The position numbers were made by a program, and so were the translations under genes. A stretch of DNA of 64,000 nt from Paraspadella gotoi (lineage: Eukaryota > Animalia > Chaetognatha): positions 12,432,790 to 12,496,789 of the forward strand of contig CM119269.1 in the NCBI GenBank assembly GCA_051294375.1, in the 5' to 3' direction. Below the pieces are notes generated by a model. The model was not told the DNA's origin. It saw nothing but the letters and a program-made list of their open reading frames with translations, and ran no database searches. Shown here in pieces: positions 5,282 through 59,332 of this stretch (position 1 is the first letter of the stretch; each line of letters opens with the position of its first letter).

Positions 5282-34988
<29,707 letters not shown>

Positions 34989-37539
34989 TTCCATCTTTTT
35001 TTAGGAGGTTCCATCCTTAGGGAATATTTTAATCGATCGGAAACTAAATTTAAAAAAAAATTGTTATTTGAATGAATTTTTCCGTAGTTTCATTAAATCG
35101 TGTAGTGCATATGTATGTGTTTATAAAAACTTTATTAGAAGCTAATTAATAAATTATGAAATTATACTGCATGGTCTTTAAAAGGTACAAATTAGAGAAC
35201 GCTATCAAAACTATTCTCTCTGCTGGACTAGGGAGAAGGCATTTTAGTTGAAAAAGTGTGCGCGCATTACGTACATCAGTAATTTGGTTTTATTTACTTA
35301 CTTATTTACTTTACAGTCAACAACTCTGTTTAAAAATTTGCAATGCAAACTTTCAATAGCTCAATAGCTCATTAAGATCTGGCCTATTTCAAGTTTCTGA
35401 GCTCGCGAAAAATAATGACACCTCGTCAAATGTCGCTCTTTTACACTTCCTCATTGTCATTCGCTCTCAAATAGAAATTTAAACAATCAGCCATTCATTC
35501 CATTGCAGTATTACGGCATTCATCACAGGCATACTGGAGCTAGAGAGTATAAAGGATGATTCTTAAATCTTTATTTTATTACTTTTTTAAATTCTAGACT
35601 TTTACAGTAATTTCATTCAACTAGTAATGAAAAATACCTTTTTCTACATTCTTTATTTTAAGTTCCTATTGAAATAAATTACTTGATAGTCCTGACAGAA
35701 AATTGACATCATTCGTGTCACCCACATTGATGGAGCGAAATTTTTTGTTGAGCTGAAATACTAAATGTTCAATTGTTTATGCTCTGAATGAATTTAGCAT
35801 AGCTTCATGTTTTTAACATTTTTTGATCGTACTATTTTAATTGTTAAATAACGAAAATTGATGACAAAAAATTATTTTCCTAAATCGAAAGTTTTATAAT
35901 TTTTTTACATAAATTGAAGTAATTGTATCATCTTGAGATGACTTTACTGTTGAATTCTATGTATTAGTGATACATGAATAATCCGTATTATGCGATTAAA
36001 AAGTTGTTTGCTTGCCTTTAATTATGAATTAAAACATCGTTGTCCTTTCAAATCAATTTTTTAAATGCAGATATAGAATCAAGAGACATAAAAGAGATCA
36101 TACCACGCATATATATTTATACAGTCTTGTGCAAAAAAAAGAAAACACTGTTAAATTTTGAATTACGAGCGTTTTAAGCATGTATTTAAAAAAAAAATTA
36201 AATGTTAAATTTAGATTTTTTAAAGGGGAATCTATATGTAAATATATGTATGTGTAAATATAATACCAATTTCATAAAACAAAATCGGCCAAGTCATTCA
36301 AGAGAGACAAGTGGTCAAAATCAATATGGGGAAAAAAACATTTTTGAAGATTTGCAGAAAACCGAAGATGCCATTCAGCCTTAATTTTTGGGCGTTGCAA
36401 TCATCTATCCAAAAAGTTAAAAAAATAAAAATGGGAAATATTGATTTTTGAAAGAGAAATCAATACGTGTCAATTAAATAAAGTCGGTTCAGACATTCAA
36501 GGTTAAAAATGCGTCAATTTTCTTCTTCTCTAACTCTGTGTAGTTATTTTTTTTAAATAATTGCTTACAAAGGGATGACTGAATTTTAACCAAATTTTCA
36601 CTAATAATTCATTTTTCTATGAACATTATTGATTTATAATAAAGGAATAAAAGAATGTTGTCCTCAACAAAACAAATATACCATTTCAGGTGGGGAAAAA
36701 TTGGTCAATTGAAATTATGGATAAATGATAAACTGTAGTGGATTATATGACTTATGGATAGTTTTTTACCTTGTTATTAATAATCTTACAGCATTTTAAA
36801 TTTAATGCAAAGAATATCTTGCATATATTTTATTGTACTCGCCCCCTTAGTTCATTTTATTTAATACCAATTATCGGTTGATACACAGCTGAGATTACGC
36901 AGACTTAAGGCATGGTACTCTTTCATAGCAACCGAGACGCACGAGGGAGGATGAAAGGAAAATGCGGACCTCAGTGAAGCCTAAGTAGGACAAGAGAAAG
37001 AAAAAGATAAACGAAAAAATGAATAGATGAGAAACCAAAACTGGAGAGAAAGTATTCGTTTGAAACACGACTCATTTTTCATGGTCAGTCAGCGGCTCCT
37101 TGTCTTTCGCTTCCTTCATCTATCGCTCGCTTCCAACAGAAGATTTGACCTTCCAAAGTTAATGATCGGAATTGAGGAAATACTTCTAAAAGTTTTTAGA
37201 TTATTTTAATATTGATATGGTTTATAAATAAAAACATTTTAAAATTATCTAGTCAGAAAAATATATAGATCAAGAAAAATTTACAACCCTTCAAAAAGCA
37301 AATTTTAATTCTCTTTAATATAACTTAATGGAAGCATGCGCAAAAACAAGTTATAAAAATGTTTATATTCTGTTTTCTACGAATTATAAATAGATAAAAA
37401 ATATATGTCACGCTGTCAATACATGCAATGCTACTCTATCAAATTTCCTGAATAATTATGAGACTAATTGCATTCAACTTACTTGTTTTACTGTCCTCAT
37501 TCTAATTCGATATACTAACAACTGGGCAAAAATACTCGC

Positions 37540-37830
37540 ACATGTGAAATGCGTTGTTTTTTTGTCGAACCGAACCTCTTCCAACAAAGCGACATCTGTG
37601 GCCGATTCGAAGAGGCCGTAAACGATGTCGCTGTCTTCTCTCTTTCCGACGGGCGACGCATGCGCCGCCGTCGAAGCGGTTCGCCTCGCCTCGCCTCGCC
37701 TCTGCCGCCGTGACACGTGTGTGCCCAAAGAATGAGACACGCCGGTGACTCGAGTCACTCTCTCTTCGCGCCTCTTTATAACCAAAGCATTTTCCTTCGC
37801 TTAAAGTTTTTTCTCGATTCCATCAACAAA
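37540..37830 (+). promoter_or_regulatory. Putative promoter of the housekeeping-gene cluster
   Basis: CpG-rich patch, perfect palindrome gtgactcgagtcac (37745-37758), TATAA at 37777, pyrimidine tract ~30 nt downstream; probable 5' UTR intron 37978-38086 (gtatgt..ttacag). Confidence 0.45.
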
Positions 37831-38182: not shown

Positions 38183-41100
38183 ATGCCGAAAGAAAAGGTT
38201 CACATCAACATCGTCGTCATCGGCCATGTCGACTCCGGGAAATCCACCACGACTGGTCATCTGATCTACAAATGCGGTGGCATTGACAAACGTGTCATCG
38301 AGAAGTTCGAGAAGGAAGCCCAGGAGGTGAGTCTACTTCTGAAGATGTTCTAATTTGTATCCAGTTTTTTTTATATGATTATATTTCATTATTATATATC
38401 AGATGGGCAAAGGTTCCTTCAAGTATGCTTGGGTTTTGGACAAGCTAAAGGCCGAGCGTGAGCGTGGTATCACCATTGACATCGCCCTGTGGAAGTTCCA
38501 GACCGATAACTTTTACATCACCATTATTGACGCTCCGGGTCACAGGTAGTTTCCTTATTTTCTAACTGACTTGAAATTTTTTTAACTGCAGTTAAAGAGC
38601 ATTTAGGTTTTATTCCTATTTCTTTTTCCTAGGGATTTCATCAAAAACATGATTACCGGTACCTCTCAAGCCGATTGCGCTGTTCTGATTGTTGCTGCCG
38701 GAACTGGTGCGTATTTAATCAGTTGCTAAATATATCATTTTATGGCTAATCTTTCTTCTACTTAACCATTTTTTTCTTCAGGCGAGTTTGAGGCTGGCAT
38801 CTCTAAAGAAGGTCAGACGCGCGAGCACGCTCTTCTCGCTTACACCCTGGGAGTTAAACAACTCATCGTTGGCGTTAACAAGATGGACACGACGGCTCCC
38901 AAGCCTTACAGCGAAGAGCGTTTCTTGGAAATCCGTAAGGAGGTTCAAAATTACATCAAGAAGATCGGTTACAATCCCAAGGAGGTCATATTTTGCCCCA
39001 TTTCTGGCTGGCATGGAGATAACATGCTGGAAAAGTCTGAGAAGATGACGTGGTGGGCTAGTGTAAGTTCAAAACACTATTTGTATTGGATTAGTACTTG
39101 TCTGTTGGCGCTCTTTTCAATTACATTATTACTTGGCCTTTAGGGTTATGGTGATGGCAAGAAAGAGAAGGGCTGGGCCAAGGAAACTAAGGAAGGTGGT
39201 GCCAAGTCTGGCATGACCCTCATTGATGCTCTGGACTCAATCAACCCACCCAAGCGTCCCACTGACAAGCCTCTTCGTCTCCTCTGCAAGATGTTTACAA
39301 AATTGGTGGAATTGGCACAGTGCCTGTTGGTGAGGCTCTTTAAAACTAAATTCCTGATGCAGACTAGAAGCTGTTAACTTTTGACAGTTTCTCTATTAAG
39401 TCAGGAATATCAAAATTAAGCTTATCGCGTGATCTATGGCATACTTATTGCAATGATAGGTTACCCCGTGGCTTACTCACAATAAAATGGCTTCTCTGGT
39501 ACCATCTTTTATTTCCTAATCTTTTTTCTTATTTCTAGGCCGTGTTGAAACTGGCAAACTCAAACCCGGCATGGTGGTTAATTTTGCTCCAGCCAATGTT
39601 ACCACTGAGGTTAGTAAAAATATTTTCTTAGATTTTTTTTCCCTTAGACACGATCAGTTAAGGGTTTACCTGCCCACTGATCAGCGAGAAGGGGCCCGGA
39701 ATAATAATGAAGAGATGCCCACCTCGCAGTGTCTTAAATCAATGCCTTCATTCTTTTGAATGATCTAGTATATTCCATAATGTTCCTTGAGCTCTATGGG
39801 CTATAACATGGGACATTGTCCATACTAGCAACAACCATTAATTAATTTTTACAGTGATGAGGTATTTAAATATCAAATTAATTATGTTAAAAAATTAATT
39901 TTAGGTAGCCATTTCTGATGAAATTTATATGCTATGTATACAGTATTAAAATAATTATGAGCATGGCTTATGGTATCAAAAATGCTTTTTTCTAAAGGTA
40001 CTAGCTTAATTAAAATTATATTACTATATAAAGATAGAAAAAAAAATTTAAATCTTACCTTTTTTTTATAGATTCTGATAAAGCATAAAAAGTTAAATAA
40101 AAAATATTAGTTTTTAAAATTTTTTGTTTTTTAAGTGATAATGTAAAAAAATTATGGTCTTCTTATTTTTGACTCGCTTATCATAAAAATATTTCCAGAA
40201 TTATACTTTGTGTAGACAACTTTTTATGAGCCATCTGGATTTAAAATTTCCAAAAAGGTATTTTGGCCTTTATCTACAAAAAAATATTAATAAATTAATT
40301 ACTTGGTATAGAGCCATGTAAGCATTTTTTTCCCCATTGAAAGTATACTTAAAAATGTATAAATTTTTATATGAGCCAGTACTTGCTCTCAATTTTTGAC
40401 TCACCCCATTGTGGCTACCCCTATTTCAGGTCAAGTCTGTGGAAATGCACCACGAGTCTTTGCCGAGGCTCTACCCGGAGACAACGTCGGTTTCAACGTA
40501 AAGAACGTCTCCGTTAAGGAGATCCGTCGTGGAAATGTCGCTTCTGACTCGAAGAACGACCCCGCCAAGGAGTGCAAGAACTTCATGGCTCAGGTAAATA
40601 GTTAACACATGTAATAATCAATATCTACAGAAATATTTAGTTGATTATAAACTACTGAGTAACCATTAATTCATTAACCGGTATTTTATTTAAGACAGGT
40701 TTTTATTTTTTTAATTTTTTTCATTCTCTTTTAGGTGATCGTTCTCAACCATCCTGGTCAGATTAAAAACGGGTATGCCCCTGTCATGGATTGCCACACC
40801 GCTCACATTGCTGTCAAGTTTGAAGAGATTCTTAAGCGGTAAGATTATAATCACTTAATGACCTTAAGCATCTCGTTAATTCGTATTTTAATTTTATAAT
40901 TTAGTTGTGATCGCCGTTCCGGCAAGGAGTTGGAGGCCTTCCCCAAAACAATCAAGAACGGTGACGCCGCCATCGTTGAAATGATTCCCTCAAAGCCAAT
41001 GGCGGTTTGAGGCCTTCCTCGGACTACCCCGCGCACTTCGAACGCACCCGATTCGCCGTTCGTGACATGAGGCAGACCGTCGCCGTCGGCGTCATCAAGC

Positions 41101-41253: not shown

Positions 41254-41754
41254 CCAGTCGTGGGCGTGGCTGCCGATGCCGGCGCCGCCCGACACCCGAC
41301 GACGCGAAAACCGCGCAGACGTTCTCGCATCAAAGATACTTTTCGGCATATTTTTCCCTTTAAAAGAAAAGACTTTAATAGTATATTCGCGAAGCAAAAT
41401 AACTATTACTACAGTAGAAGTAAACGCCAAAAGGACTCGGCGGTGGCGAGGTCTTTTCATTCTCGAGTCTCCGCCATTTTGTTCTCAGTTCGATCTATGG
41501 ATAAGTTTTTGGCGCCCTCTTTGTTTAAGGTTAAGAGTCACAGAACTGAGGAATTTAGGATAGCAGAAAGTAATTTGTTTCGAATGTAACCCTTGAGATT
41601 GTTTTTTTTTTTTTTTTGGCTGCAGACGTAGCGTTTAAAGTTTGGTCTAAGCTTGATCGATTACATACCTTCGAGATTAACGATTATTATTCGCATTCCC
41701 TTTATTTAATTTTTCTTCGCGCTTAAACTTTTTCAAAATTTTCTTCAGATTTAA

Positions 41755-45067
<3,313 letters not shown>

Positions 45068-45375: not shown

Positions 45376-48157
45376 ATGTCACACCGCAAATTTTCTGCCC
45401 CTCGTCACGGCAACTTAGGCTTCCTGCCGAAAAAGAGGTGCAAGAACCACAAGGGGCGGATCAAGAGCTTTCCAAAGGATGATCCCAAAAAGCCGGTTCA
45501 CCTAACCGCCTTTACAGGTTACAAGGTGACGTACCATTTTAAGTTTTTCTCATTAAATTAGTTTTCGTACTCTGATGAAAAAGTATTCATTGACACGAAC
45601 CATGAAAATTATTTCGAGCTTTTTAACCCTGACTTATCTGACCATAACCAAACGTTTCTTCTATTATTTCTTAATTTAATTGGCTTTTTTTTTTTTTTTA
45701 ATTTTTAATCTTAGGCGGGAATGACCCATGTGTGCCGACTCGTTGACCGCCCGGGGTCAAAGGTCAACAAGAAAGAAGTTGTGGAACCCGTGACGATCAT
45801 TGAGACTCCGCCTATTATGGTGGTGGGCGTGGTCGGGTACATCGAGACGCCTCACGGAATGCGGACCTTTAAAACCGTTTGGGCGGAACATTTGTCGGAC
45901 GAATGCAGGAGAAGATTCTACAAAAACTGGTTAGCGGGGACTCGGGGTTCGATGAGAAAAATTGGCATAAACGCTTTGCCTTCGTCCATCGTTGGCCCGG
46001 AGGTCGGAACAATATGCCGAAATAAAAGCCAAGTCTCGATGTCGCTTTGAAGATCGATTCCCTTTTATGGTCTTCAATTGAACCATCCCGACACATTTCT
46101 CGTACTAAGTTAATGTTACGATTTTAGGTACAAATCAAAGAAAAAGGCTTTTACCAAATACACGAAAAAATGGTCGGCGGAAGACGGAAAGAAGGAAATC
46201 GAAAAAGATTTTGCCAAAATGAAGAAATACTGCACCGTCATCCGAGTCATCACTCATACTCAGGTTAGTTATCTATGATTTCATGTCTTTCTTTCCCTTA
46301 TTTGTTTCGTGATGAAAAGTGGAATCGTGCTTCTAAAAATATTTATGTTGAACATCAATTCCACCCATGCTGCCTTCCTTCTGATTTCTACTCTCCTTAA
46401 TTTTGAGTGAACTTTAAATTTTTGTCGTTTTTCTAAAATTAATTATTTGTTGTGCAGATTAAACTCCTCCATAAGCGTCAGAAGAAGGCTCACGTTCACG
46501 AAATTCAGCTCAATGGCGGAACTATTCCAGAAAAGGTAACAATTTTCGGCTCGATTTTCCTGACCAAGTCTTAATTTTATATAATATTAAAATTAATTTC
46601 CGATTAGGTGGACTATGCCCGCGGACTTATGGAAAAGACTGTACCAATAAAAGATGTCTTTAGTAAAGACGAGATGGTTGACATTATAGGAGTTACCAAA
46701 GGTCACGGCGTTAAAGGTAAAAATTTAGGATGTGGCTTAATTTTTAATTTTCCTGCTGGGTGTGATGATAATCAATCCCACAGCGATCATAGCTTCCTTG
46801 ATGATATTTTAAAATTCTGATCCCTTGTTTTTTGTTTGGTTTTTTTTTTTTTTTTTTGTTTTTTAATTTTCATTTATCGGATTACCTCTTTTTTTATAGG
46901 TGTTGTTGGACGTTGGCACGTGAAGAAACTTCCTCGGAAGACGCATAAGGGTCTTCGAAAGGTAAATTAGCTCGTGTCGAGGTTACTGTTTTGATAATTC
47001 ATAAGTTTTCAAATGTATTAGCGGAATCTTTCATTTGTATTTTGAAGGTGGCGTGCATTGGTGCGTGGCATCCCTCTCGCGTCGCCTATTCGGTCGCTCG
47101 AGTCGGACAGAAAGGTTTGTAAAAGCAATAATTAAAAAACTTTTCCTAAGAACTCCATGATTGATCGGTTTTACTTTTTTTTTCCCCCCTCAGGGTATCA
47201 CCATCGCACGGAGATAAACAAGAAAATTTACCGCATTGGTGATGGTTTTCATACTAAAGACGGCAAGGTGTGTTGACTTTCGATTAAGCTAAAAGTAGAT
47301 TTGCAAGTTACCAGCGGTGTCAGTTCTTTTTTACCCGAACTGCCTTCTCCTTAGACACTTGCAAGAATAAATTCCGTCCGTTTGAGGCAGTCTTTGAGAC
47401 ATTTTCTCTACTGCTATAGAAATGGCGGTACACCTTTTTGAGCAATTAATAATATGAAAATTGTTGATAAGCGGGTGATTTAATCTTTACATGCCTGTAA
47501 AATGAAAATTTAATTTATAAAACCAAATTCTCAAACTTTTTTGAATTTTTTGTTATTACTGGTATTTAAAGAACCAATCTGCTTATCAACTTAATCCGAA
47601 TTTGTTTTTAATAATCTTAATCCTTAGTCTTATCATAATATCATCTTTATTTTTCTTCAGATGATTCAAAACAATGCTACAACGGAACAAGACATAACTG
47701 AAAAATCCATCAACCCCATGGGTGGTTTTCCTCATTACGGGATGGTCAAGCAGGATTACGTTATGTTGAAAGGCTCCTGTATCGGGATTCGAAAAAGAGT
47801 TTTGAATATCCGCAAATCTCTTATTCCCCAAACTAAGAGGGTCGCAACTGAGCAGGTCAGTACGTCTACTTGGTACTTTATTATAACAGGTAACTTTTAT
47901 CATATGATGAAAGAGGAATTACCGTTTGAATCTTTATGTAACCGAATTCCTGGCTGCTTTTTTCTGACTAATACTATTTTTTACTTCAAATGTCCAAGTA
48001 ATTTCTAGCGTAAGTTAACTATGCTTTTTCCATTTACCAGATAAATCTGACTCTGATCGATACCACATCGAAGTTTGGTCACGGAAGGTTCCAAACCCAT
48101 GAAGAAAAGAAAAACTTTATGGGTCACATGAAAAAAGATGGCAACAACGCATCTTAA
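45376..48157 (+). CDS. RPL3: 60S ribosomal protein L3 (uL3), 10 coding exons
   Basis: [56 protein letters not shown]. Confidence 0.97.
45572..45632 (+). ncRNA. C/D snoRNA, SNORD36/snR47-like (SSU Am619 equivalent)
   Basis: Box C (c)TGATGA, D CTGA; guide cgagctttttaac complements SSU GUUAAAAAGCUCG; D+5 falls on A of GUUA. Confidence 0.85.
45962..46098 (+). ncRNA. H/ACA snoRNA; 3' pocket fits LSU psi2826 equivalent (snR34/U65-like)
   Basis: Hairpin ttggcata/tatgccga, H box AAATAA, ACA+3; pocket gtcgc + tgaac matches GUUCA-U-A-GCGAC. Confidence 0.75.
46309..46384 (+). ncRNA. C/D snoRNA (SSU Am420 equivalent, snR52-like)
   Basis: GTGATGA..CTGA; guide tgctgccttcctt complements SSU AAGGAAGGCAGCA. 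Confidence 0.85.
46762..46820 (+). ncRNA. C/D snoRNA, possibly SNORD48-like
   Basis: GTGATGA, C' TTGATGA, CTGA, terminal ggg/ccc stem; guide atcccacagcg complements LSU CGCUG(U/C)GGGAU; D' box degenerate. Confidence 0.65.
47301..47435 (+). ncRNA. H/ACA snoRNA; 5' pocket fits LSU psi960 equivalent (snR8/SNORA56-like)
   Basis: Hairpin ttgcaagt/acttgcaa, H box AGAATA, hairpin ccgtc/ggcgg, ACA+3; pocket accagc + ttaga matches UCUAG-U-A-GCUGGU. Confidence 0.75.
47904..47967 (+). ncRNA. C/D snoRNA, SNORD65/snR77-like (SSU Um578 equivalent), copy 1
   Basis: ATGATGA, D' TTGA, CTGA; guide ggaattaccg complements SSU CGGUAAUUCC. Confidence 0.85.
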
Positions 48158-48456
48158 TTGGTAAGATTAAACTAAATGATTATCAGCTTTATGTAATAGT
48201 CCATACTCATGAGTACATAAACTAAAATTAAGACTAATCATTAAAATTGCTTTGCTTTTCAATCTTAATTTTAAAAAATTTAAAATTTCCTGTTGACTAT
48301 AAAAAAATATTTATTAATAATTCTAATCAATTCATTCTATCTTTGCAGTAATTTTTAAAATATAATTATTAATTATAGTTATAATATTTTATATTATTGA
48401 TAATGATTTAATATTATTTTAGACATCGTTTTCCTTTCGTTTCGTTGTTTGGATTG

Positions 48457-48661
48457 TTTAGATTGTTTAAACAACGATTTTATTATTATAAGACAAACAT
48501 GTTTCGGCTTTAATTATACAATCCTTCATCGGCGTCAAAGATATTTGTGCAAACTCTTTTTAGAAATTCACAAATATCTTTGACGCCGATGAAGGCTTGT
48601 ATGATTAAAGCCGAAACATGTCCGTCTTATAATAATAAAATCGTTGTTTAAACAATCTAAA
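48457..48661. repeat. Palindromic pair of Penelope-type hammerhead-bearing repeats (CCGATGA variant core)
   Basis: ccgatgaa-ggctt..aagcc-gaaa-catg-tc at 48586-48622, with an inverted copy at ~48495-48535; arms ~90 bp. Confidence 0.65.
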
Positions 48662-49755
48662 ACGTCTTCTATAATATTTTAATATTTATTATTATAATAG
48701 GGTGGAGTTATGAACAGATTAAGAATTATTTTTATGCTGTTTACGGACATGTAATTAACGAATTTTTAAAAAATTTTAGCATAACAGTATAGTAAATTTA
48801 ATTGTTTAATTATTTAATCATTAAAATTCTTAATATTTTTAAATTTTAAAGATTTTGATTCGCCGCAGAAAAACTAAACTATTATAAAATGTTATCTTAT
48901 GTCGTGGCGCGAGGTACCTTACTAAATGGCCTAAGGGTTGCGGACCCTCGGTGACCGCTTCCTGTCATTAGCATGTTTAGACCGGCTCCGTCATATTTAA
49001 AGCAGAACCGGGATACCTGAGGATTCAACCCGGGACGTACGGTTGTAACGAAATGATTTAGCCTGCCCCGCCATTGAGACGAGGCTGAGGACACAGCAAT
49101 GAGGCAGCTTTAGGTCTTTTAATGAAATTGGTACAACCAATATAAAATTATCCATTCATTTAATAAATAAGCTATCTTGCCCCTGACTTTGGACAGGCTT
49201 TGGTGGTTTAAGGCCTCCATCACTCTTACAAGATAATTACATAGCAGGTCCCTGCAAGCTTTCAATCAAGACTCGCTCACTGTCCCGTTTATTCACTCCC
49301 AGAGTACCTGGCTTCCCTATCAATGAAGTGGAAAATATTTCAAAGAATATTATCATAAAAAATGAATAAAATATTTTAATATGTTTTACGCGCTGATGAA
49401 GCCTCAATTTAGTAAAAACATGTCCCTTTTTTTAATAAAAACCGTTATTTGTAAACACTTTTTTCTTATTACAGAAAATTTTTTTTTAAAAATTTTTGTT
49501 TTAAATGCTGAGGATGATTGAATTTTTGATAATGTTTTATATTTTTGATTCATTTTTTGTGAAAAATCTGAATCTTCAATTTGAAAAAAAGTTTTGTTTA
49601 AACTTTGTTTGTTGTTTGTGATTATTAAATGACAAAACAATATAAATGAAATAATGATAACTAATTATACAATTTTTAAGTTTATTGTATGTAATATGAA
49701 ATTTAAGCAAGCAAGATATTTTTTTATTTTATGCCTAGTTGTCCGTAATCAATTA

Positions 49756-50410
49756 CAGAAGGCTTCATATTATAAAATGTAGTACCCCTTTTTTGTGACC
49801 AGAATCTGTTCCCACCAAACTACCCAATCGAATTTAATGATATTTTACATTTAGTGCTAATGACTATATAAATAGAACTATCGAGGCGAATTTTGATATT
49901 CAACCCCTGACAAGAGATACAGGGCCCTAGGGGTGGACCCCTGGGGGGCCAAAAAATGCTAAAAAATTTTTTTCTATTTTTTTTAGTAGTATCAGGTGCA
50001 TTGACGTTTTAAACATAAGAAAAAAACATTTTAGAACTAAAATTGATAAATTTGCAATAATTAAGCATGGTTGAAAATGCATGGTTCATCGTTTTACTTC
50101 CAATTTTCCCAAATTATTCCAAATGTGACTTTAGCTGCTGATGTTCATGAAGCTAAAAATTAAGGTAAATGAATATTTTTAAGGTAATAAATACGTTTTT
50201 GTGGAAGAGTAAACGTCTGTGCAACTTATTAAAACAAATATAATAAAAAAATTTGAGGGGTGGAATGTAAAAATTCGCTTAGATAGTTCCATTTGTATCA
50301 CTACTGGTACTCGGCATGCAAAATTTCATTAAATTCTATTCAGTAGTTTTCTCGGAACATGTTCTGGTCACAAAAAAGGGGTACCACATTTTATAATATG
50401 AAGCCTTCTG
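49756..50410. mobile_element. MITE with ~55-bp terminal inverted repeats and TA duplication
   Basis: cagaaggcttcatattataaaatgtagtaccccttttttgtgaccagaa / ttctggtcacaaaaaaggggtaccacattttataatatgaagccttctg, TA on both flanks. Confidence 0.85.
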
Positions 50411-50803
50411 TATATCGTTTGTTGAAATAAAACTTTTTGCTTTGTAAACAAATATTTAACACCTAAATCTGTTTGAATTAATTTTGTCATATTTTTAGTA
50501 TAAACACTATGTAAACTATTTATATTTATAAAATTACATGCTAAAAAACCGTTTTATTTTTAACATTACTATAATAAAACTTATAAATTTACGCCAATAA
50601 AATCATTATCTGACAAATTTGATCGTAAGCTAATTTGCTTAATTTATCAGCCAGATAAAAACCGATCAGGATCTCTCACCTTTAGAATTTCAAGTCAAAA
50701 GTTTTTTAAATTAAATATACATTTGTGATCACTTATGACGTTTACATAACTTATGTAAACGTATGTAAACTTATGTAAACGTTTTTGGAAATCTGAATCC
50801 ATC

Positions 50804-50867
50804 ATGATGAAAGAGGAATTACCGTTTGAATCTTTATGTAACCGAATTCCTGGCTGCTTTTTTCTGA
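50804..50867 (+). ncRNA. C/D snoRNA, SNORD65/snR77-like, copy 2
   Basis: Identical to 47904-47967 from box C to box D. Confidence 0.85.
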
Positions 50868-50938
50868 TTATTACTTTATTTTTTTAAATGTCCAAGTGAT
50901 TACTAGTGTAAGTTCATTAAGCTTTTCCCATTTACCAG

Positions 50939-50995
50939 ATAAATCGGACTGATTGATACCACATCGAAAAAGACAGCAAAAACGCATCTTAATTG
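50939..50995 (+). pseudogene. Decayed duplicate of the RPL3 last exon, probably a non-coding exon
   Basis: Aligns to 48041-48160 with an internal deletion but keeps the acceptor ttaccag and donor gtaag. Confidence 0.7.
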
Positions 50996-51232
50996 GTAAG
51001 GTGAAGGAGTTGTAGTCTTTCTTTCAAGATCAAACTAAAACTTGATTTCTTTTTCCAGGTCTCCTCAAGGCGTTGACTGAAAGACCTCCAATCTAAAATC
51101 CGGATGTTTAAAATCCTTTTTCTTAGTCATAAATGCGTTCAATGTTTTTCCGGCCTTTCAAATTGCCATACTTTTTGCTTTACACACCACCAGTCGCTCT
51201 CATCATACAAAATACTCTAAAAAGACTCTAAT

Positions 51233-51684
51233 ATGCAGAACGAATCCGGCGAATACGTTGACCTTTACGTGCCTCGAAAATGCTCTGCCTCAAATAGAAT
51301 CATCGGTGCTGGGGATCATGCATCCATTCAAGTACGTTGTTAAACCGAAATTCCTGATTAATGCTTTTTTTTTTGGATCATGATGACTTAGTTATCCCTG
51401 TCTAAGTCGCTGTATGCTAGACAAATCTTCCTTGGATGTCTGAGATTCTTAACTTTTTGTTTAAACGTTTGTTTTTCCGTCTTAAATTTAATATTTTCAC
51501 AAATCCTTACGATTTTTTTTACCAAATCAAGATGAACCTTGTTGACGTTAACGCCTCAACCGGTATCATGACCGATTCACATAAAACCTACGCCCTCTGC
51601 GGCAAGATTCGCGGGATGGGCGAGTCTGACGATGCCATCCTCCGCCTTTCGAAGCGGGATGGATTGGTGAGCCAAGACTCCTGA
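51233..51684 (+). CDS. RPS21: 40S ribosomal protein S21 (eS21), 2 coding exons
   Basis: [33 protein letters not shown]|[20 protein letters not shown]. Confidence 0.96.
51380..51443 (+). ncRNA. Dual-guide C/D snoRNA: U14 domain-B guide (SSU Cm414 equivalent) plus SNORD31/snR67-type guide (LSU Gm2619 equivalent)
   Basis: ATGATGA; agttatccctgt-CTAA complements LSU ACAGGGAUAACU; cttccttggatgt-CTGA complements SSU ACAUCCAAGGAAG; terminal stem ggatc/gattc. Confidence 0.85.
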
Positions 51685-51731
51685 CGTTTCCGTTGTCTTC
51701 CCCGGAGGTAAGGCTATTAATTGTATGGCGG

Positions 51732-51864
51732 TTTCTGTCGTGGGCAGTAGTCTGATACATCCCATGGTCAGCTTCTCTATAATCTCGACAGAAAAATTGA
51801 TGTGGAGTCTAAAACTTTCGATGCGTCCTTTTATCGCCTCGATTACGCTAAATTCCAAACAATA
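51732..51864 (+). ncRNA. H/ACA snoRNA in a post-stop non-coding intron
   Basis: Hairpin ttctgtcg/cgacagaa, H box AGAAAA, hairpin tggagt/attcca, ACA+3; pocket tgggca + aatc may fit LSU GAUU-U-C-UGCCCA. Confidence 0.7.
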
Positions 51865-51976
51865 TTTTATTGATCAATAGTATTAGTATTTATAATAATA
51901 TTTTTTTCTTTATTTTTGTCAGAACGTTTCACGAACGCGTTTTCTTCAAAGGTAAGCATTCTCATACTTTTTTATA

Positions 51977-52109
51977 TTTGTCCATAAAGCATTGTGCCCT
52001 TTTATTTGTAGATGGTATATGCTGAAATGGACAAAAAGAAAATAGGATTGCTCAATTAAAACCCATGGCTGTCTATTTCAGGCTGTGGATCCTGTCTTGG
52101 GCAACAATT
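51977..52109 (+). ncRNA. H/ACA snoRNA in an intercistronic intron; 3' pocket fits LSU psi2975 equivalent
   Basis: Hairpin tttgtccat/atggacaaa, H box AGAAAA, hairpin tgctcaa/ttgggca, ACA+3; pocket taaaac + cctgtc matches GACAGGU-U-A-GUUUUA. Confidence 0.72.
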
Positions 52110-52362
52110 AATCATTAAATATTCTTAATTATCCTAATGGGTATTTTATATTTTTGTTACATCTTGTCGACCCTCTCGGTCGTGTTATAATTACAAATTG
52201 AACGTCATTCAACCCAGTACTTCTCCTTTAGGCTCGTTTTGTGACAGCAGCAATTTTCGCCAAGATTCTCTCCCTGTTTAAGTAAGTTAATTAAAGTTCA
52301 TTTTGATAAGAGCATAGCATTAATGCGTATTATTTTTTCCTGCAAAAGACTTCGCGTTTAAG

Positions 52363-52428
52363 GTGATGAAGTTTTAAGACTTGCCCTATCTTAATCCGAT
52401 TGTGTTGATTATTTTTTACGCTTCCTGA
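52363..52428 (+). ncRNA. C/D snoRNA in an intercistronic intron (human SSU Gm601 equivalent, SNORD103-like)
   Basis: GTGATGA..CTGA; guide agacttgccct complements SSU AGGGCAAGUCU; D' CTTA. Confidence 0.75.
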
Positions 52429-52775
52429 TTCGTTCCTCAAATTCTTTACTTCGGTATTAATTAGGTTCAAGTATTGATTAATTTAATTTATTCTCAGGCT
52501 CGGAAGAAGGAACGGCTTGGAACATCGACATCCGTAAACTTTTTAAATTTTCATGCACGTTCTTACTTTGCAACAAATCTTCAAAGAATGATTGATACCA
52601 ATCCGCTCTTTCTTTTCTTTCCATCGAGAAATCTCGTTTTAGAATGTATTTTGTATTGATGTTCATTTTTTTGTCATTTTTCATAAAATATTTTGTATTA
52701 TGTTTTGAATTTTTGAAAACTTCATAGGAAGCATTTATTATTTAAATACTAAACTAAAATCCAAAAACTAACAAA

Positions 52776-55700
52776 ATGCCTAAGGAAAAGATCCACATCA
52801 ACATCGTGGTCATCGGCCACGTCGACTCTGGAAAATCGACCACCACCGGTCACTTGATCTACAAATGCGGTGGCATCGACAAGCGTGTCATCGAGAAGTT
52901 CGAGAAGGAAGCCCAGGAGGTAAGTCCAAAAATTGGACTAAATTTCCAAAGTTTTTTATCTCGCCGGAAAGCCCGACTTGGGGCGAGATTTTAATTCGTT
53001 TCTGCTTCTTTAACCGTAGTCATTGTCGTGCTGTTTTACCATTGGAAATAGCTCAAGTGTATAACCATAGGAAGCTAAAAATTTAGATATGGTTCCTCAT
53101 CATTTAGGTCTTTTAAATTGTTTCATATTGCTACACGTATTTGTTTGTTTTATTTTCCAAACAATTTATATATATATAAACGAGTTCAGATCTGCAGCGG
53201 TTGTCCAGTTTTTGTTTTTTATCGTCGCAATCGCTAAGCGTAACGCTTTTGCGCATAAGTGTCGTCGGCGTTCCAAATTATAGATCGCCTTTTTTATGAT
53301 TAAATTTGAATGTATGAAGCTGAAAATTTATATACAGCTTCTCATCATCGATGTGCTTAAAATTGAGTCTGGCCAGTTATTAAATGTTTTGTTTACATTT
53401 TATCAAAACAAACAAATTTTTTCTTTAATTTTTTTTTCTTTTAATTACATGTCTTTCTCCCTCCCTTTTCCCCGAGTCACTGATTCATAAGGGAAAAAAA
53501 AACTAGTCTGCTGCTGGTTCTGCAGGGGTTTGTTCTTTCTCTTTTCTCTCTCTCTCTGCGTTTTTATTTAAAAAAAAATTGAAATAGGATAGAACTCGTA
53601 CAAATGCGATACCTAATTTTACTTATTTTGCTATCGCAACATCGTTTTTATTTCGGTTTTTTTTTCTCAGAGGCTGCGTCTGCTGATTAGTTTCTTTTTT
53701 GACAATAATTTTTTTTCAGAAACTAACTTTAATTTATAATTTATAAAATATATTTTTTTTCTGTTTATAAATTAATTTTCTTTTCTTAAATTTTTTTTTT
53801 ATAAAAATTTGTCATCAATCCAGATTTTTCTTATGCGATTGCGACGATCCTTATGCTTTTAAGATTTTTTTATTATAAATTTTTATAATAAAAACTGAAA
53901 CTTTTTAAAATTAAATCTTTCATTTATAAATTTGGGAAAAATTTTTTTTTATAGGTTTTTTAAATAAATTTAGGTGAGCTGATTATATAAAATTTTTAAA
54001 CTATTTTCGCAAATAATTATAAAAAAGATCATATGGTCAAAACTAGCTTAATTTAAATAGCCATAGCCGATGAAATTTAAATGCTAATGTATACAGCGTT
54101 AAAATAATCTATCATGACCATATATTATGGTATAAAAATATTTTTTGTCAAAAATGCTTTCTTCTGAGGGTACTTGCCTAATTAAAAATATTATATTACT
54201 ATATAGAGCAAAAATTTTTTTTTTTAAATCTTAAAATTTTTTGATGGATTCTGATAGAGCATAAAAGGTTAAACAAGAATTATAATTACAGCTTTTAAAA
54301 ATTCTTACGTTTTCTCAGTGAAAATATAAAAAAACTGATAAAATCATCGAAAGATGACGATAATGATGATTTTCTACAGTTTCTTATTTTTGACACACTT
54401 ATCGTAAAAATATTTAAAAAAGAATCATACTTTGTGTAGACAACTTTTTATGAGCTATCTGAATCTGGTCTTAAAATTTAAAGATTCAAAAAAAAAATTT
54501 TGGCTTTTCCTATCTATAAATAAATATTAAAAAATTAATTACTAGGGTATAGAGCCATATTAGAAATTTTTTGTTCTTTGAAAGAATTCTTAAAAATGTC
54601 TAAATATTCGTTTGAGCTTGTACTCGCTCTAAATTTTTGACTCGCCCCATTGAGTGCGGCTATCCCTAATTTAAAGGATCAATTCAGCTTTTTACCCTCC
54701 CAGGTCACTTAATCCCCTTAAGCTCTGCAGCAGCTGTCCAACTTCTTTCTCTTCTTTTTCTCTCTCTCATACACTCGTACACGCATTTGTTTTATTTACG
54801 ACGAATGACTATTATTGCGTCCATGAATGATTATTATTAGCGGTAGCCGACCAAATTTAAATTTTAATGGGAACAGCATTAAACTAATCCATTATTGGTA
54901 TTAATTATTGTATTAAAATATTTTTTTGCAAAAGTGTTCCGAACCATGAGTAATTCGCTAATTAATATTATTATATTGCTATATAATGTTAAAAATTTTT
55001 TTTGATATTTTAAGTTTTTTTAATTGATTCAGATAGAGCTTAAAAAGTTAAACAAAAAATATAATTACAACTTTTTAAAATTTTGATGTTTTATTACTTA
55101 AAAAACTGCTAAAATAATCGGATGATGATGATAATGATTTTTTAAGGTTTTTCCTAGTTTTGACCCACTTATCATCAAAATATTGAAAAAAGAATTATAC
55201 TTTGTCTAGATAACTTTTTATAAGCTATCTGAATCTGATTTTAAAAATACAAAATTTTTTAAAAAAATTTTGACATTTCCTATCTATAAATAAATATTAA
55301 AAAATTAATTACTAATGCTTCTAGCCATTTTAGAAAAATCAAACTTCTGACCCACCCTATTGACAAAGTTTGGCTCTATTATTATTGCGTCAATCCTTTG
55401 GTTATCATCACATCAATCAAACAGTTACATTATAATTACATTACAATTACTCAATCATTCGGGGTTTTTTTTCGGATTTTTCATTAAGAAATCGCTATAC
55501 TTTTAAGATTTTTTCATTTGTATTTTTTTTTTTTTTTTTTTTTACAGATGGGTAAAGGCTCCTTCAAGTACGCTTGGGTGTTGGACAAGCTCAAGGCTGA
55601 GCGTGAACGCGGTATCACCATCGACATTGCCCTATGGAAGTTTCAAACAGAAAACTTTTACATCACCATCATCGATGCGCCTGGTCACAGGGATTTCATC

Positions 55701-58700
55701 AAGAACATGATCACCGGCACCTCTCAGGCCGATTGCGCGGTCCTCATTGTTGCTGCTGGAACAGGTAAACTAGTGTGAATTAAATTTCAGGAGAACATGA
55801 AGAATTCTTCATGATTGAATTGCTTTAATAAGGCATTTCTTTAATTTGTTGCTGCATTTTCAGGTGAATTCGAAGCCGGCATCTCCAAGGAAGGTCAAAC
55901 ACGTGAGCATGCCCTGCTCGCTTACACCCTGGGTGTGAAGCAGCTCATTGTTGGAGTTAACAAGATGGACACCACTGCACCCAAGCCATACAGTGAAGAG
56001 CGTTTCTTGGAAATTCGCAAGGAGGTCCAAAATTACATCAAGAAGATCGGTTACAATCCCAAGGAAGTCATCTTTTGCCCCATTTCTGGATGGCATGGAG
56101 ATAACATGCTGGAGAAGTCGGAGAAGATGACGTGGTGGTCTGGTGTAAGTATTGATTAATTGGTCATTGCAACTTCCTTTTATAAAAGTCATTTCTGCTT
56201 AGCGATTTATTTTATTGATGATTTTTGCATTAATATTACATTCATTTTAAGGGATATGGCGAGGGCAAGAAAGAGAAGGGTTGGGCCAAGGAAACCAAAG
56301 AGGGTGGAGCCAAGTCTGGCATGACCCTCATCGATGCTCTGGACTCCATCAACCCACCCAAGCGTCCCACTGACAAGCCTCTTCGTCTGCCTCTGCAAGA
56401 TGTCTACAAGATTGGTGGAATTGGCACAGTGCCTGTTGGTAAGTTTTGTGTCAAGATTGGCTAAACTGAGACCTTGATTCTTAATTTGTATAGCAAAAAC
56501 TTAAGCAAAATATAATTTTGTATTCAGGTCGTGTTGAAACTGGCAAACTCAAGCCTGGAATGGTTGTCAATTTTGCTCCAGCCAATGTTACCACTGAGGT
56601 TAGTAAAAATATTTTCTTAGATTTTTTCCCTTAGACACGATCAGTTAAGGGTTTACCTGCCCACTGATCAGCAAGAAGGGGCCCGGAATAATAATGAAGA
56701 GATGCCCTCCTTGCAGTGTCTTAAATCAATGCCTTCATTCTTTTGAATGATCTAGTATATTCCATAATGTTCCTTGAGCTCTATGGGCTATAACATGGGA
56801 CATTGTCCATACTAGCAACAACCATTAATTAATTTGTACATTGATGAGGTATTTAAATATCAAATTAATTACATTAAAAAAATAATTTTAGGTCAAGTCT
56901 GTGGAAATGCACCATGAGTCTTTGCCTGAGGCTCTACCCGGAGACAACGTTGGTTTCAACGTGAAGAATGTTTCCGTTAAGGAGATCCGTCGTGGAAATG
57001 TCGCTTCTGACTCGAAGAACGACCCTGCCAAGGAGTGCAAGAACTTCATGGCCCAGGTTTGTATTTTACTCGAATACTTTAATTTTTTTAAGAATAATTT
57101 GGTCATTAAAATTAATGTCTTCTTTTAGGTTATCGTTCTTAACCACCCGGGAACAATCAAGAATGGATACGCACCCGTTATGGATTGCCATACTGCCCAC
57201 ATTGCTGTCAAGTTTGAAGAGATTCTCAAGCGGTAATTAATTGTAGAAAATGTTATTTTCTATGCCTCGAGGGTCGCACGTTTGATTCGTCGGCTTTAAC
57301 ATGGAGCAAGGTTTTCTAACTCTCAAATGACATAAATGACGAATAAATCGTGAAGTTTGTTTATTGTAGAGGTAAATAAATGGCAAAATTAATGTAGTAC
57401 AATAAGTTCATGTAGAAAATCCTTGGATTCCGTAAAAACTACGGTTTCATACAGCCGATCTTTTCCAGAGAAACGATTATGATCGAATGACAAGTGACGA
57501 GATTTTCGGCTAAAAAGTTACAAGAAAGCGACTAGAACGGTGAAAAGACCAGGGAAAAATGACTGAACGCGAGGTCACAATCTTTTCTTCAAAATTCATT
57601 ACTTTTTAAGCGTTATTTTATGCAAAGTATATAATTTGGCTGTTTTAATCCAGGTTATGAACATTAGTCATATGAAAAGAATAAAATTTTAGAAAATTAA
57701 AATATAGCATATAAAACTTAAAAATAAAAACCAATATAAATACTTAAGTAAATTTATTTTTTAATTTTATACATTAGTGGGCACCAGTAAGCTATATTTA
57801 AATTTTAAGATCGGATTTGGATTCCTTGCAAAAAGTTGATATATGAAAGTATAATTCTTTTTTAAAAATTATTTCATTAAGTTGGTTAAAAATGTAAAAA
57901 ACTATATTTAAGACGTTGATTTTTAATTTTGAACTTAAAAATATAGTTTTTTATAATTTTAACCTATTTAAAACAAAATATAAATCTTTCTCAAAAATTA
58001 TATCATTATCAACTTTTAACGACGAATCTGATTCTGTTCTCAGCATTTAAAAAAAATATTTTAAAATTTTGACAATATATAAGGGTAGTAGTATATACAA
58101 AATAAGCTGACTGGGCTACTATATTTGTAAAAAAAGATAAATAATTACAGATTAGTATTCACAAATATGATAGTTTCAAGATATAACTGCTAAATTTTGA
58201 TTCCAAACTTTCACTTTACCCTAATGAACATAAATATCAGTAATTAATCTACTTTCATTACCTTTGCCCGTGGGTAATGTTCTAATTTACTAATGTACTT
58301 TCTTTCTATTTCCAGATGCGATCGCCGTTCGGGTAAAGAGCTAGAAGCTTTCCCGAAGACCATCAAGAATGGTGACGCCGCCATCGTTGAGATGATTCCC
58401 TCGAAGCCAATGGCGGTTGAGGCCTTCTCGGACTACCCGCCACTCGGCCGATTCGCTGTTCGTGACATGAGGCAGACCGTCGCCGTTGGCGTCATCAAGC
58501 AGGTATTGTTGACACGATTTGACTCAATTTATTATAATTTTATGATTTTGTTATTACTGGTCTAATTTTTTATCACTAATAACCAAACACTACTGTATAG
58601 TATATTACTTCCTTAATCTAATTTGCTATAATCGACATATTTTTAGTATCAATAGTTTTTTATCATTAAAGTAAATTTTGAGAAATGATTTTTACTCTTA

Positions 58701-58789: not shown

Positions 58790-59332
58790 CACGCGGGCGT
58801 CTCCTTTCGCCTCACGATCGCCACCCAAATCCAAAGAGCGATTCGCAAAATACGGACCTTCTGTCCTTCGATAACGATTGATATTACGAATTTTCCGCGC
58901 TTTAGTGGTATTATTTGCCATCGAACCGAAGTCTTTAGGATATGATTACTCTGTTATTATTAGGATTCGAAAGCTTGACCTTTGGAGATTAACCATCATA
59001 CTCAAAATTCGCTTAATTATTTACGCTACGACCAAAATGTTTTCCTAGTTCTAATTTTTCTTTTTTTTTTATTTACGTGGTCCGATTCCTACTACACCGT
59101 GGAGATTTCGTTGTTTGTATTCTTTAACTTAATGATTCGTTTATTATTAAGGATAGAATGCTTCTTTTTGTCAAGTTGTACACTTGGATATGCATGTACC
59201 ATGTTTGTATGTGCAATCCTTAAAATAATTAGCGCTAAATTAAAACATGTACGAAAATTTTTGATACATGTCTTTTTTATTTTGAAACTTCAGATTTGAT
59301 GTAAATATTTGTTAAAAAAAAAAAGATTAAAA

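Follow-up and report, generated by a model that had tools for sequence, protein, structure and literature searches.

Between the stop codon of RPS21 and the start of EF1A-2, two co-oriented genes of the chaetognath Paraspadella gotoi, small non-coding exons alternate with three introns, each of which holds one small nucleolar RNA (snoRNA) candidate on the sense strand. The chain lies in a window of 64,000 nucleotides (GenBank assembly GCA_051294375.1, contig CM119269.1, positions 12,432,790 to 12,496,789 of the forward strand), which is the whole stretch of DNA that was analyzed and to which all coordinates refer. Based on the present data, the chain is probably the spliced 3' untranslated region (UTR) of RPS21, serving as snoRNA host within a spliced-leader operon of this chaetognath. 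Splicing was assessed with Logan contigs from four runs (X1 to X4) of two studies (P1 and P2), placed on positions 50400-52780 with a likeness threshold of 85; the RNA nature of these runs is the tool's guess, none of the listed runs being recorded as RNA, which does not count for or against it. Under the proposed interpretation, RPS21 and its downstream exons are organized as follows.

51233 to 51331, + strand: RPS21 coding exon 1 (Pfam PF01249 profile positions 1-33, E 5e-17; covered by X1 record 3)
51332 to 51531, + strand: RPS21 coding intron with a U14/snoR38-like C/D RNA (200-nt GT..AG skip in X1)
51532 to 51707, + strand: RPS21 last coding exon (TGA at 51682-51684, then 23 nt of 3' UTR; Pfam profile positions 34-78/79)
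51708 to 51922, + strand: 3' UTR intron 1, 215 nt (GAG/GTAAGG...TTTTTGTCAG; skipped in X1, X2 and X3)
51923 to 51951, + strand: non-coding exon A, 29 nt (in spliced contigs of X1, X2 and X3)
51952 to 52231, + strand: 3' UTR intron 2, 280 nt (AAG/GTAAGC...CTCCTTTAG; skipped in X1, X2 and X3)
52232 to 52281, + strand: non-coding exon B, 50 nt (in spliced contigs of 4/4 runs)
52282 to 52497, + strand: 3' UTR intron 3, 216 nt (TAA/GTAAGT...TTCTCAG; skipped in 4/4 runs)
52498 to 52727, + strand: terminal exon of the RPS21 3' UTR (exon C), entering the intercistronic stretch (3' end unmapped; contigs of X2, X3 and X4 end at 52639, 52629 and 52667)

GT..AG skips of 215, 280 and 216 nt were present in the contigs of three, three and all four runs, respectively, with 0-1 other letters in the records that carry them, and the fourth run contributes to the 280-nt skip an 11-letter loose end identical to the end of exon A. 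Some sides of the joints measure 27-29 letters since exon A is only 29 nt long, and contig depth, which cannot rank parts of a gene, was not taken as a measure of abundance. Record 7 of X2 (51592-52639) and record 8 of X3 (51603-52629) each combine exons A-C with RPS21 coding sequence in one contig, and the fully spliced form was assembled even from the three shallow runs of the second study. One low-depth X1 contig retains intron 2 (51923-52259), and intron 1 has no contig cover in the four runs, which alone proves nothing. Between the RPS21 stop and the acceptor before EF1A-2, a distance of 1043 nt, GTRAG occurs at the three donors and nowhere else. A sequence-only reading of this DNA had placed three introns at precisely these positions, separated by exons of 29 and 50 nt, and had proposed that transcription and cis-splicing extend across the spacer. 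The intron boundaries proved exact, with GT and AG in the sequence and joints at all three junctions in the contigs, and that both processes go on beyond the RPS21 stop is borne out by the contigs that join RPS21 coding sequence to exons A-C.

The TGA is the true end of RPS21, because the S21e profile covers positions 1-33 and 34-78 of 79 across the two coding exons and is matched to position 78/79 four residues ahead of the stop. Since just 23 nt separate this stop from the first donor, an earlier 3' end of the message would be impossible unless intron 1 were kept. A processed DNA copy as the source of the joints is unlikely in view of five exact GT..AG skips, two studies and the partly spliced form that keeps intron 2. 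Read-through or a hidden open reading frame in the spliced segment was also considered and rejected: the ATG frames reach at most 27 codons, and RPS21 ends at profile position 78/79.

At its downstream end, the chain is bounded by an acceptor that is not paired with a donor and that precedes the start codon of EF1A-2.

52726 to 52775, + strand: unpaired acceptor AG (52726-52727, catag) followed by the EF1A-2 leader region, GAAGCATT; predicted spliced-leader acceptor
52776 to 52919, + strand: EF1A-2 first coding exon (Pfam GTP_EFTU)

The closest relatives of this EF1A exon show up to 97% identity and share an insertion motif, and a metagenome scan for this motif returned seven contigs with 78-87 identical residues over 92-94. 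Five of the seven start with SL2.0, whole or partial, one begins with a form-3-like leader and one lacks the 5' end; the leader corresponds to the chaetognath SL2.0 given in Table 3 of an earlier study, where form 3 is the one that the variant resembles (PMC2481426). In two contigs (L001 and L006) the leader is joined directly to the same letters that follow the acceptor at 52727. The second of these continues from EF1A into RPS18, with a spacer resembling that between EF1A-2 and RPS18 of the window (score 90, 0/200 shuffles) and 87/91 identical RPS18 residues; this arrangement identifies L006 as a counterpart of EF1A-2. Two others (L002 and L004) match the acceptor and 3' region of EF1A-1, the first EF1A copy of the window. 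Because the relatives join the leader at the matching site and the leader sequence is absent from the 64,000-nt window, the EF1A-2 message is likely trans-spliced and would start at 52728. A predicted poly(A) signal, CATAAA at 52682-52687, lies 46 nt before the acceptor within a U-rich stretch (52660-52700), and the ends of the X2-X4 contigs between 52629 and 52667 give a weak hint, from one study, of the RPS21 3' end. Exons A-C are joined to RPS21 coding sequence and EF1A-2 is likely leader-spliced at 52728; exons A-C are therefore likely RPS21 3' UTR. The earlier view of the chain as a GAS5/SNHG-like host segment fused between two cistrons thus gives way, as the chain is spliced to an intact RPS21 and EF1A-2-type messages begin with the leader in relatives. 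It had left open whether the exons join RPS21, EF1A-2 or both: single contigs of X2 and X3 settle this for RPS21, and the leader at the matching 52728 site of relatives makes it unlikely that the mature EF1A-2 message contains the chain.

The best-supported snoRNA candidate is that of intron 2.

51977 to 52109, + strand: H/ACA snoRNA, SNORA26-like, predicted 28S guide (H-like box ANANNA at 52034-52042, ACA at 52104-52106)

This RNA adopts a predicted hairpin-hinge-hairpin-tail fold with pockets (z −3.62, 0/200 shuffles; z −4.46 and −2.05 for the two hairpins). Compared with Rfam SNORA26 (RF00568) it reached 33 bits (E 0.0021), which is under the gathering cut-off of 40, and both strands of its 3' pocket agree with the SNORA26 consensus. 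It thus appears to work like SNORA26, though it is not a member of the family at the cut-off. The 3' pocket forms 13 bp with 28S around GACAGG[TTA]GTTTTA, leaving 3 bases unpaired (0/200 and 4/500 shuffles); in a strict test with a 2-base gap, the best site of this pocket stood at 3/30 shuffled targets. For the 5' pocket no rRNA target was found, the strict search giving 15-18/30 shuffles.

Intron 3 contains a candidate of the other class.

52363 to 52428, + strand: box C/D snoRNA (C box of the RUGAUGA type at 52363-52369, D box CUGA at 52425-52428, 18S antisense at 52377-52387)

The C and D boxes together occurred in 14/20000 shuffles, and their combination with the 11-nt antisense to 18S, AGGGCAAGTCT, in 0/20000. 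The D' box is not canonical, the nearest D'-like word being CTTA, two bases beyond the antisense. The D box lies 69 nt upstream of the acceptor, and intronic C/D snoRNAs are usually positioned about 70 nt before it. Among 13 C-D pairs from position 37000 on, six others precede an acceptor by 71-88 nt and the remaining six have none nearby, as judged with a hand-made list of acceptors.

The candidate of intron 1 is less complete.

51722 to 51864, + strand: candidate H/ACA snoRNA (H-like box at 51788-51795, ACA at 51859-51861)

Its 3' hairpin has a z of −2.55, reached by 1/200 shuffles; the corresponding values are −0.86 (34/200) for the 5' hairpin and −1.23 (23/200) for the whole fold. The 3' pocket is predicted to bind 18S next to a U, with 7+6 bp around TAGCGTA[TATT]AAAGTT in one 18S stand-in (L015; 13 bp, 5/500 shuffles). 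This stand-in was picked second, after the first result, and its variant is present in 13/37 fetched 18S pieces; with the other 18S stand-in (L053) the pocket forms 11 bp only (32/200 shuffles). A strict pocket search with a 2-base gap did not exceed shuffled targets (27-29/30). The predicted 18S target sites of the post-stop introns would correspond to Gm601 (SNORD103) and Psi649/651 (SNORA46/SNORA20) of human 18S. The sequence-only reading had assigned one snoRNA to each intron, H/ACA, H/ACA and C/D in this order. This assignment holds well for intron 2 and is supported for intron 3; for intron 1, it stands with respect to the 3' hairpin and the ACA box but not with respect to the 5' hairpin or the Rfam search. 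That the introns serve snoRNA release, as also proposed there, is likely from the anatomy of the candidates and their occurrence one per intron on the sense strand, with the typing of intron 1 partial.

RPS21 hosts a further C/D RNA in its coding intron (51349-51447; C box at 51380, D box ending at 51443), which scored 34.5 bits with SNORD14 and 28.6 bits with snoR38, both under cut-off. It combines a U14-like 13-nt 18S antisense before the D box with a snoR38-like 12-nt 28S antisense, and a second 13-nt 18S match is found at 51351; possibly, this RNA is a two-target or chimeric guide.

Taken together, these elements suggest the following course of events. One promoter upstream of EF1A-1 (about 37780) would drive a precursor through all nine genes of the cluster in which RPS21 resides. 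The spliceosome then removes the introns behind the stop, as the contigs show, each of the three acceptors being paired with a donor. From what is established for intronic snoRNAs, the lariats, once debranched, would be trimmed to yield two RNAs of the H/ACA class and one of the C/D class, which are predicted guides for 18S and 28S. The acceptor at 52727, which has no consensus donor, would take the spliced leader to make the start of EF1A-2, as seen in relatives only, and RPS21 would be polyadenylated just upstream of this acceptor. The resulting RPS21 message would likely escape or tolerate junction-triggered nonsense-mediated decay (NMD) sufficiently to yield RPS21.

Several observations weigh against this interpretation, and it has to be compared with other explanations. 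One X1 contig (record 3) connects RPL3 coding sequence, RPS21 and exon A without a break, and another (record 5) extends from exon B across the start codon of EF1A-2, which fits either a precursor or a stable multi-cistron RNA. Moreover, there is no leader-bearing contig for this species among those placed on 50400-52780, where contigs cannot show starts, and no leader loose end is present at the RPS21 or EF1A-2 start among the X contigs. These observations would also be accounted for by a stable, cis-spliced mRNA of RPL3, RPS21 and EF1A-2, in which the small exons act as linkers and the downstream cistrons are translated by reinitiation or internal entry. We consider such an mRNA improbable, as a contig over two genes does not show a single transcript and contigs drop rare variants, while relatives bear the leader at the matching EF1A start and L006 is leader-started, yet crosses into RPS18. 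The contig ends in X2-X4 also speak weakly against it. In the RPS14-PCNA operon of Spadella, the poly(A) site is reported 3 bases from the next acceptor (PMC2481426), a distance that alone is able to bridge contigs across cistrons. A different concern arises from the exon junctions, which follow the RPS21 stop at distances of 23, 52 and 102 nt, two of them beyond the limit set by the 50-nt rule for NMD; those of RPL3 lie 3 and 60 nt past its stop. NMD of the RPS21 message, which the sequence-only reading had suggested, is thus geometrically possible. Junctions at least 50 nt downstream of a stop can elicit NMD, in flies as well, where this was excluded by early and found by later work, and in many lineages NMD is described as uncharacterised (PMC6173133). 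Human hosts of multiple snoRNAs are enriched for NMD (PMC4233243; PMC13736004), and duplicated genes are retained in chaetognaths (PMC2481426). The spliced RPS21 message might accordingly be mainly an NMD-marked by-product of a GAS5-type host locus, with S21 protein supplied mostly by a paralogue or limited by decay. This seems unlikely to us, since the RPS21 frame is intact and of full length and the fully spliced form was assembled in three shallow runs, observations that argue only mildly against wholesale decay.

The remaining points against the proposed interpretation concern the snoRNAs. In none of the three post-stop introns did Rfam return a family at cut-off: the search gave no match in intron 1 and chance-level matches only in intron 3. 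No pocket clearly beat shuffled targets in the strict 2-base-gap test (best 3/30), the 5' hairpin of intron 1 is not above shuffles, and its 3' pocket leaves 4 target bases unpaired rather than 2. The 11-nt antisense of intron 3, taken alone, is reached by 97/500 whole-intron and 23/500 C-to-D shuffles. In addition, the targets were tested on unrelated eukaryotic rDNA stand-ins (L053, L015 and L030) and not on chaetognath rRNA; these stand-ins are eukaryotic contigs inside bacterial genome records, and their source is probably non-animal. It could accordingly be argued that the introns are real and at least one of them, above all intron 1, lacks a working snoRNA, or that the snoRNAs are transcribed from separate promoters, with the introns being incidental. 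The low whole-fold z of intron 1 and the dependence of its target match on the 18S stand-in fit this idea. We nevertheless hold it to be very improbable, because the fold and both pocket strands of intron 2 match SNORA26, the boxes and antisense of intron 3 occur together in 0/20000 shuffles at an acceptor spacing like that of its neighbours, and each intron has one candidate on the sense strand. A possible origin of the chain, which is considered below, also has weak points: exon A resembles the end of RPS21 exon 2 only weakly (53/2000 shuffles), and a duplication step is shown for RPL3 only, as the likeness of RPS21 exons A and B to exon 2 is weak or absent.

In the search for rRNA stand-ins, an 18S motif scan of viral contigs gave no match. 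Many bacterial reference genomes and metagenome-assembled genomes were seen to contain eukaryotic rDNA contigs (at least 49 loci, L008-L056), with Rfam eukaryotic rRNA in 8/10 of those tested.

RPL3, located directly upstream of RPS21, provides a view of how such host exons may arise.

48161 to 50938, + strand: RPL3 post-stop intron (donor 3 nt after the TAA at 48155-48157; X1 and X2 loose ends show 48130-48159 joined at 50938)
50939 to 50995, + strand: non-coding exon of 57 nt, a decayed duplicate of RPL3's final coding exon (alignment score 52, 0/2000 shuffles; splices to 51059 in X1 and X2)

RPL3 thus has two post-stop introns within 48161-51058. The first of these contains a second snoR77-like C/D RNA (50804-50867), whose C-to-D part is identical to that at 47904-47967. 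This layout likely reflects origin by duplication of a snoRNA intron together with the last exon, the exon copy having decayed behind the stop, and tandem duplication of such 'snoRNA intron + last exon' units followed by exon decay could add further slots in the same way. For the RPS21 chain, the same origin is only hinted at. For exons B and C, derivation from RPS21 exon 2 was unsupported (317/2000 and 1772/2000 shuffles), and a homologue search with RPS21 exon 2 yielded no candidate. The three RPS21 snoRNAs are mutually different, so that separate arrivals would be needed under a duplication origin. A broader proposition, which we put forward only tentatively and rate as rather doubtful, is that the translation operons of chaetognaths gain snoRNAs when 'snoRNA intron + last exon' units are duplicated behind stop codons, whereby essential ribosomal-protein messages, here those of two neighbouring genes, would acquire intron-split 3' UTRs. 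This would be tolerated because junction-dependent NMD is weak or absent in the lineage, or it would serve to couple the output of ribosomal proteins to the making of snoRNAs. Within the 2.8-kb RPL3 intron, a weak Twister-P5 match on the − strand (49182-49224; 25.8 bits, cut-off 37.6, E 0.14) is probably due to chance or a mobile-element remnant.

The nine co-oriented genes on the + strand, from 38183 to the window end, are EF1A-1, alpha-tubulin, RPL3, RPS21, EF1A-2, RPS18, RPL10, RPS16 and RPSA. Pfam searches with single exons matched 8/9 pieces and confirmed tubulin, L3, S21e (two exons), EF-Tu/EF1A, S13/S18 and L16/L10e; the S9/S16 score of the RPS16 exon was under cut-off, and the short first exon of RPSA matched no Pfam family, its name being given by eye. 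Each ATG of the cluster has an AG acceptor shortly upstream, and the acceptors before downstream start codons are unpaired, as is expected of an operon. GTRAG donors are absent from 6/8 spacers, only those between RPL3 and RPS21 and between RPS21 and EF1A-2 containing any. Contigs span cistron borders (X1 contigs; L006), which does not demonstrate single molecules. Chaetognath operons are reported to comprise 18% of Paraspadella genes, the longest described having nine genes, including ribosomal proteins, and the present cluster is equally long (PMC12460157). Leaders on ribosomal-protein messages are documented as well (PMC2566580).

Additional features of the cluster were recorded. It holds at least nine translation and cytoskeleton genes across 26 kb (37775-64000) and continues beyond the window end, and a TATA-like word and a pyrimidine start were noted by eye upstream of EF1A-1, near 37775-37800. 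Ordinary coding introns also host several snoRNAs, with SNORD36 at the Rfam cut-off and SNORA73, SNORA9, U83 and U14-like RNAs below it. A near-identical SNORA73 (U17)-like RNA resides in the same intron of both EF1A copies (39645-39836, 56.5 bits; 56632-56823, 53.6 bits; cut-off 74), and other Rfam-like RNAs are SNORA38-like at 43430, SNORD36 at 45567, U83-like at 46306 and SNORA9-like at 47301. The long 3' regions of the EF1A copies (41254-41784 and 58790-59332) are conserved copy by copy in L002, L004 and L006 (0/200 shuffles each), which suggests regulatory elements in these UTRs. Judged by eye, EF1A-1 seems frameshifted relative to EF1A-2 at 39270-39300 and 41000-41050, either by assembly error or by decay. 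Outside the cluster, a long intronless open reading frame on the + strand (13764-16286) has, by eye, BTB-like, ubiquitin-like and CCCH-like parts, and a retroelement integrase-like remnant was noted by eye on the − strand (9611-10588).

The arrangement is of interest because introns far behind the stop can trigger NMD and would not be expected in messages that are essential and heavily used; here, two adjacent ribosomal-protein genes carry them. The locus may therefore serve as a natural reporter for junction-dependent NMD in a little-studied animal lineage. It also places a cis-spliced and a predicted trans-spliced acceptor 230 nt apart in what would be one precursor, and offers a visible route to the birth of non-coding host exons. 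For annotation, distance-based operon calls (<250 bp, PMC12460157) would miss such links unless spliced UTRs are modelled.

In the open-access literature, we found no report of 3' UTR introns that host snoRNAs in an animal operon resolved by a spliced leader. The word snoRNA does not appear in the main texts of PMC2481426 and PMC12460157, and three supplementary PDFs of the latter contain no match to RS21, EF1A, RL3 or RS18; its supplementary spreadsheet may list the operon. A similar layout is that of the SNURF-SNRPN 3' extension, in which non-coding exons downstream of coding cistrons are separated by introns that release SNORD115/116. That system is mammalian, imprinted and very long and yields orphan snoRNAs, whereas the present chain is short, carries predicted rRNA guides and is bounded by a predicted trans-splice acceptor. 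In Plasmodium, snoRNAs are reported in or after ribosomal-protein 3' UTRs, such as PFS9 in that of RPL7a (PMC2656528). They resemble the present case as rRNA guides behind a ribosomal-protein stop, but they are described inside the UTR and not one per spliced intron, are of the C/D class only and are not part of a leader-spliced operon. With GAS5/SNHG hosts (PMC4233243) the chain shares snoRNA introns between short non-coding exons, and the spliced UTR part itself has only short ATG frames. The exons are, however, spliced to a full-length RPS21 frame and no promoter of their own was seen, so that the chain is not a GAS5-type member, though it may work like one. Chaetognath operons, such as RPS14-PCNA of Spadella (PMC2481426; PMC12460157), likewise consist of co-oriented housekeeping genes with unpaired acceptors before their starts; the same leader is found on related EF1A contigs, and a predicted poly(A) signal lies near the next acceptor. 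The present locus differs in the stop-to-acceptor distance of 1043 nt, which is due to the intron-split UTR. Intron-encoded snoRNAs in genes for ribosomal proteins and translation factors are well known (PMC4233243, PMC13736004), and the RPS21 chain agrees with them in having one sense-strand snoRNA per intron, likely release by splicing and a translation-related host; it departs from them in that three host introns follow the stop, between exons of 29 and 50 nt, with two junctions past the 50-nt NMD limit. The parts of this system, namely intronic snoRNAs, non-coding hosts and chaetognath operons, are thus familiar, and it is their placement behind the stop that is unusual.

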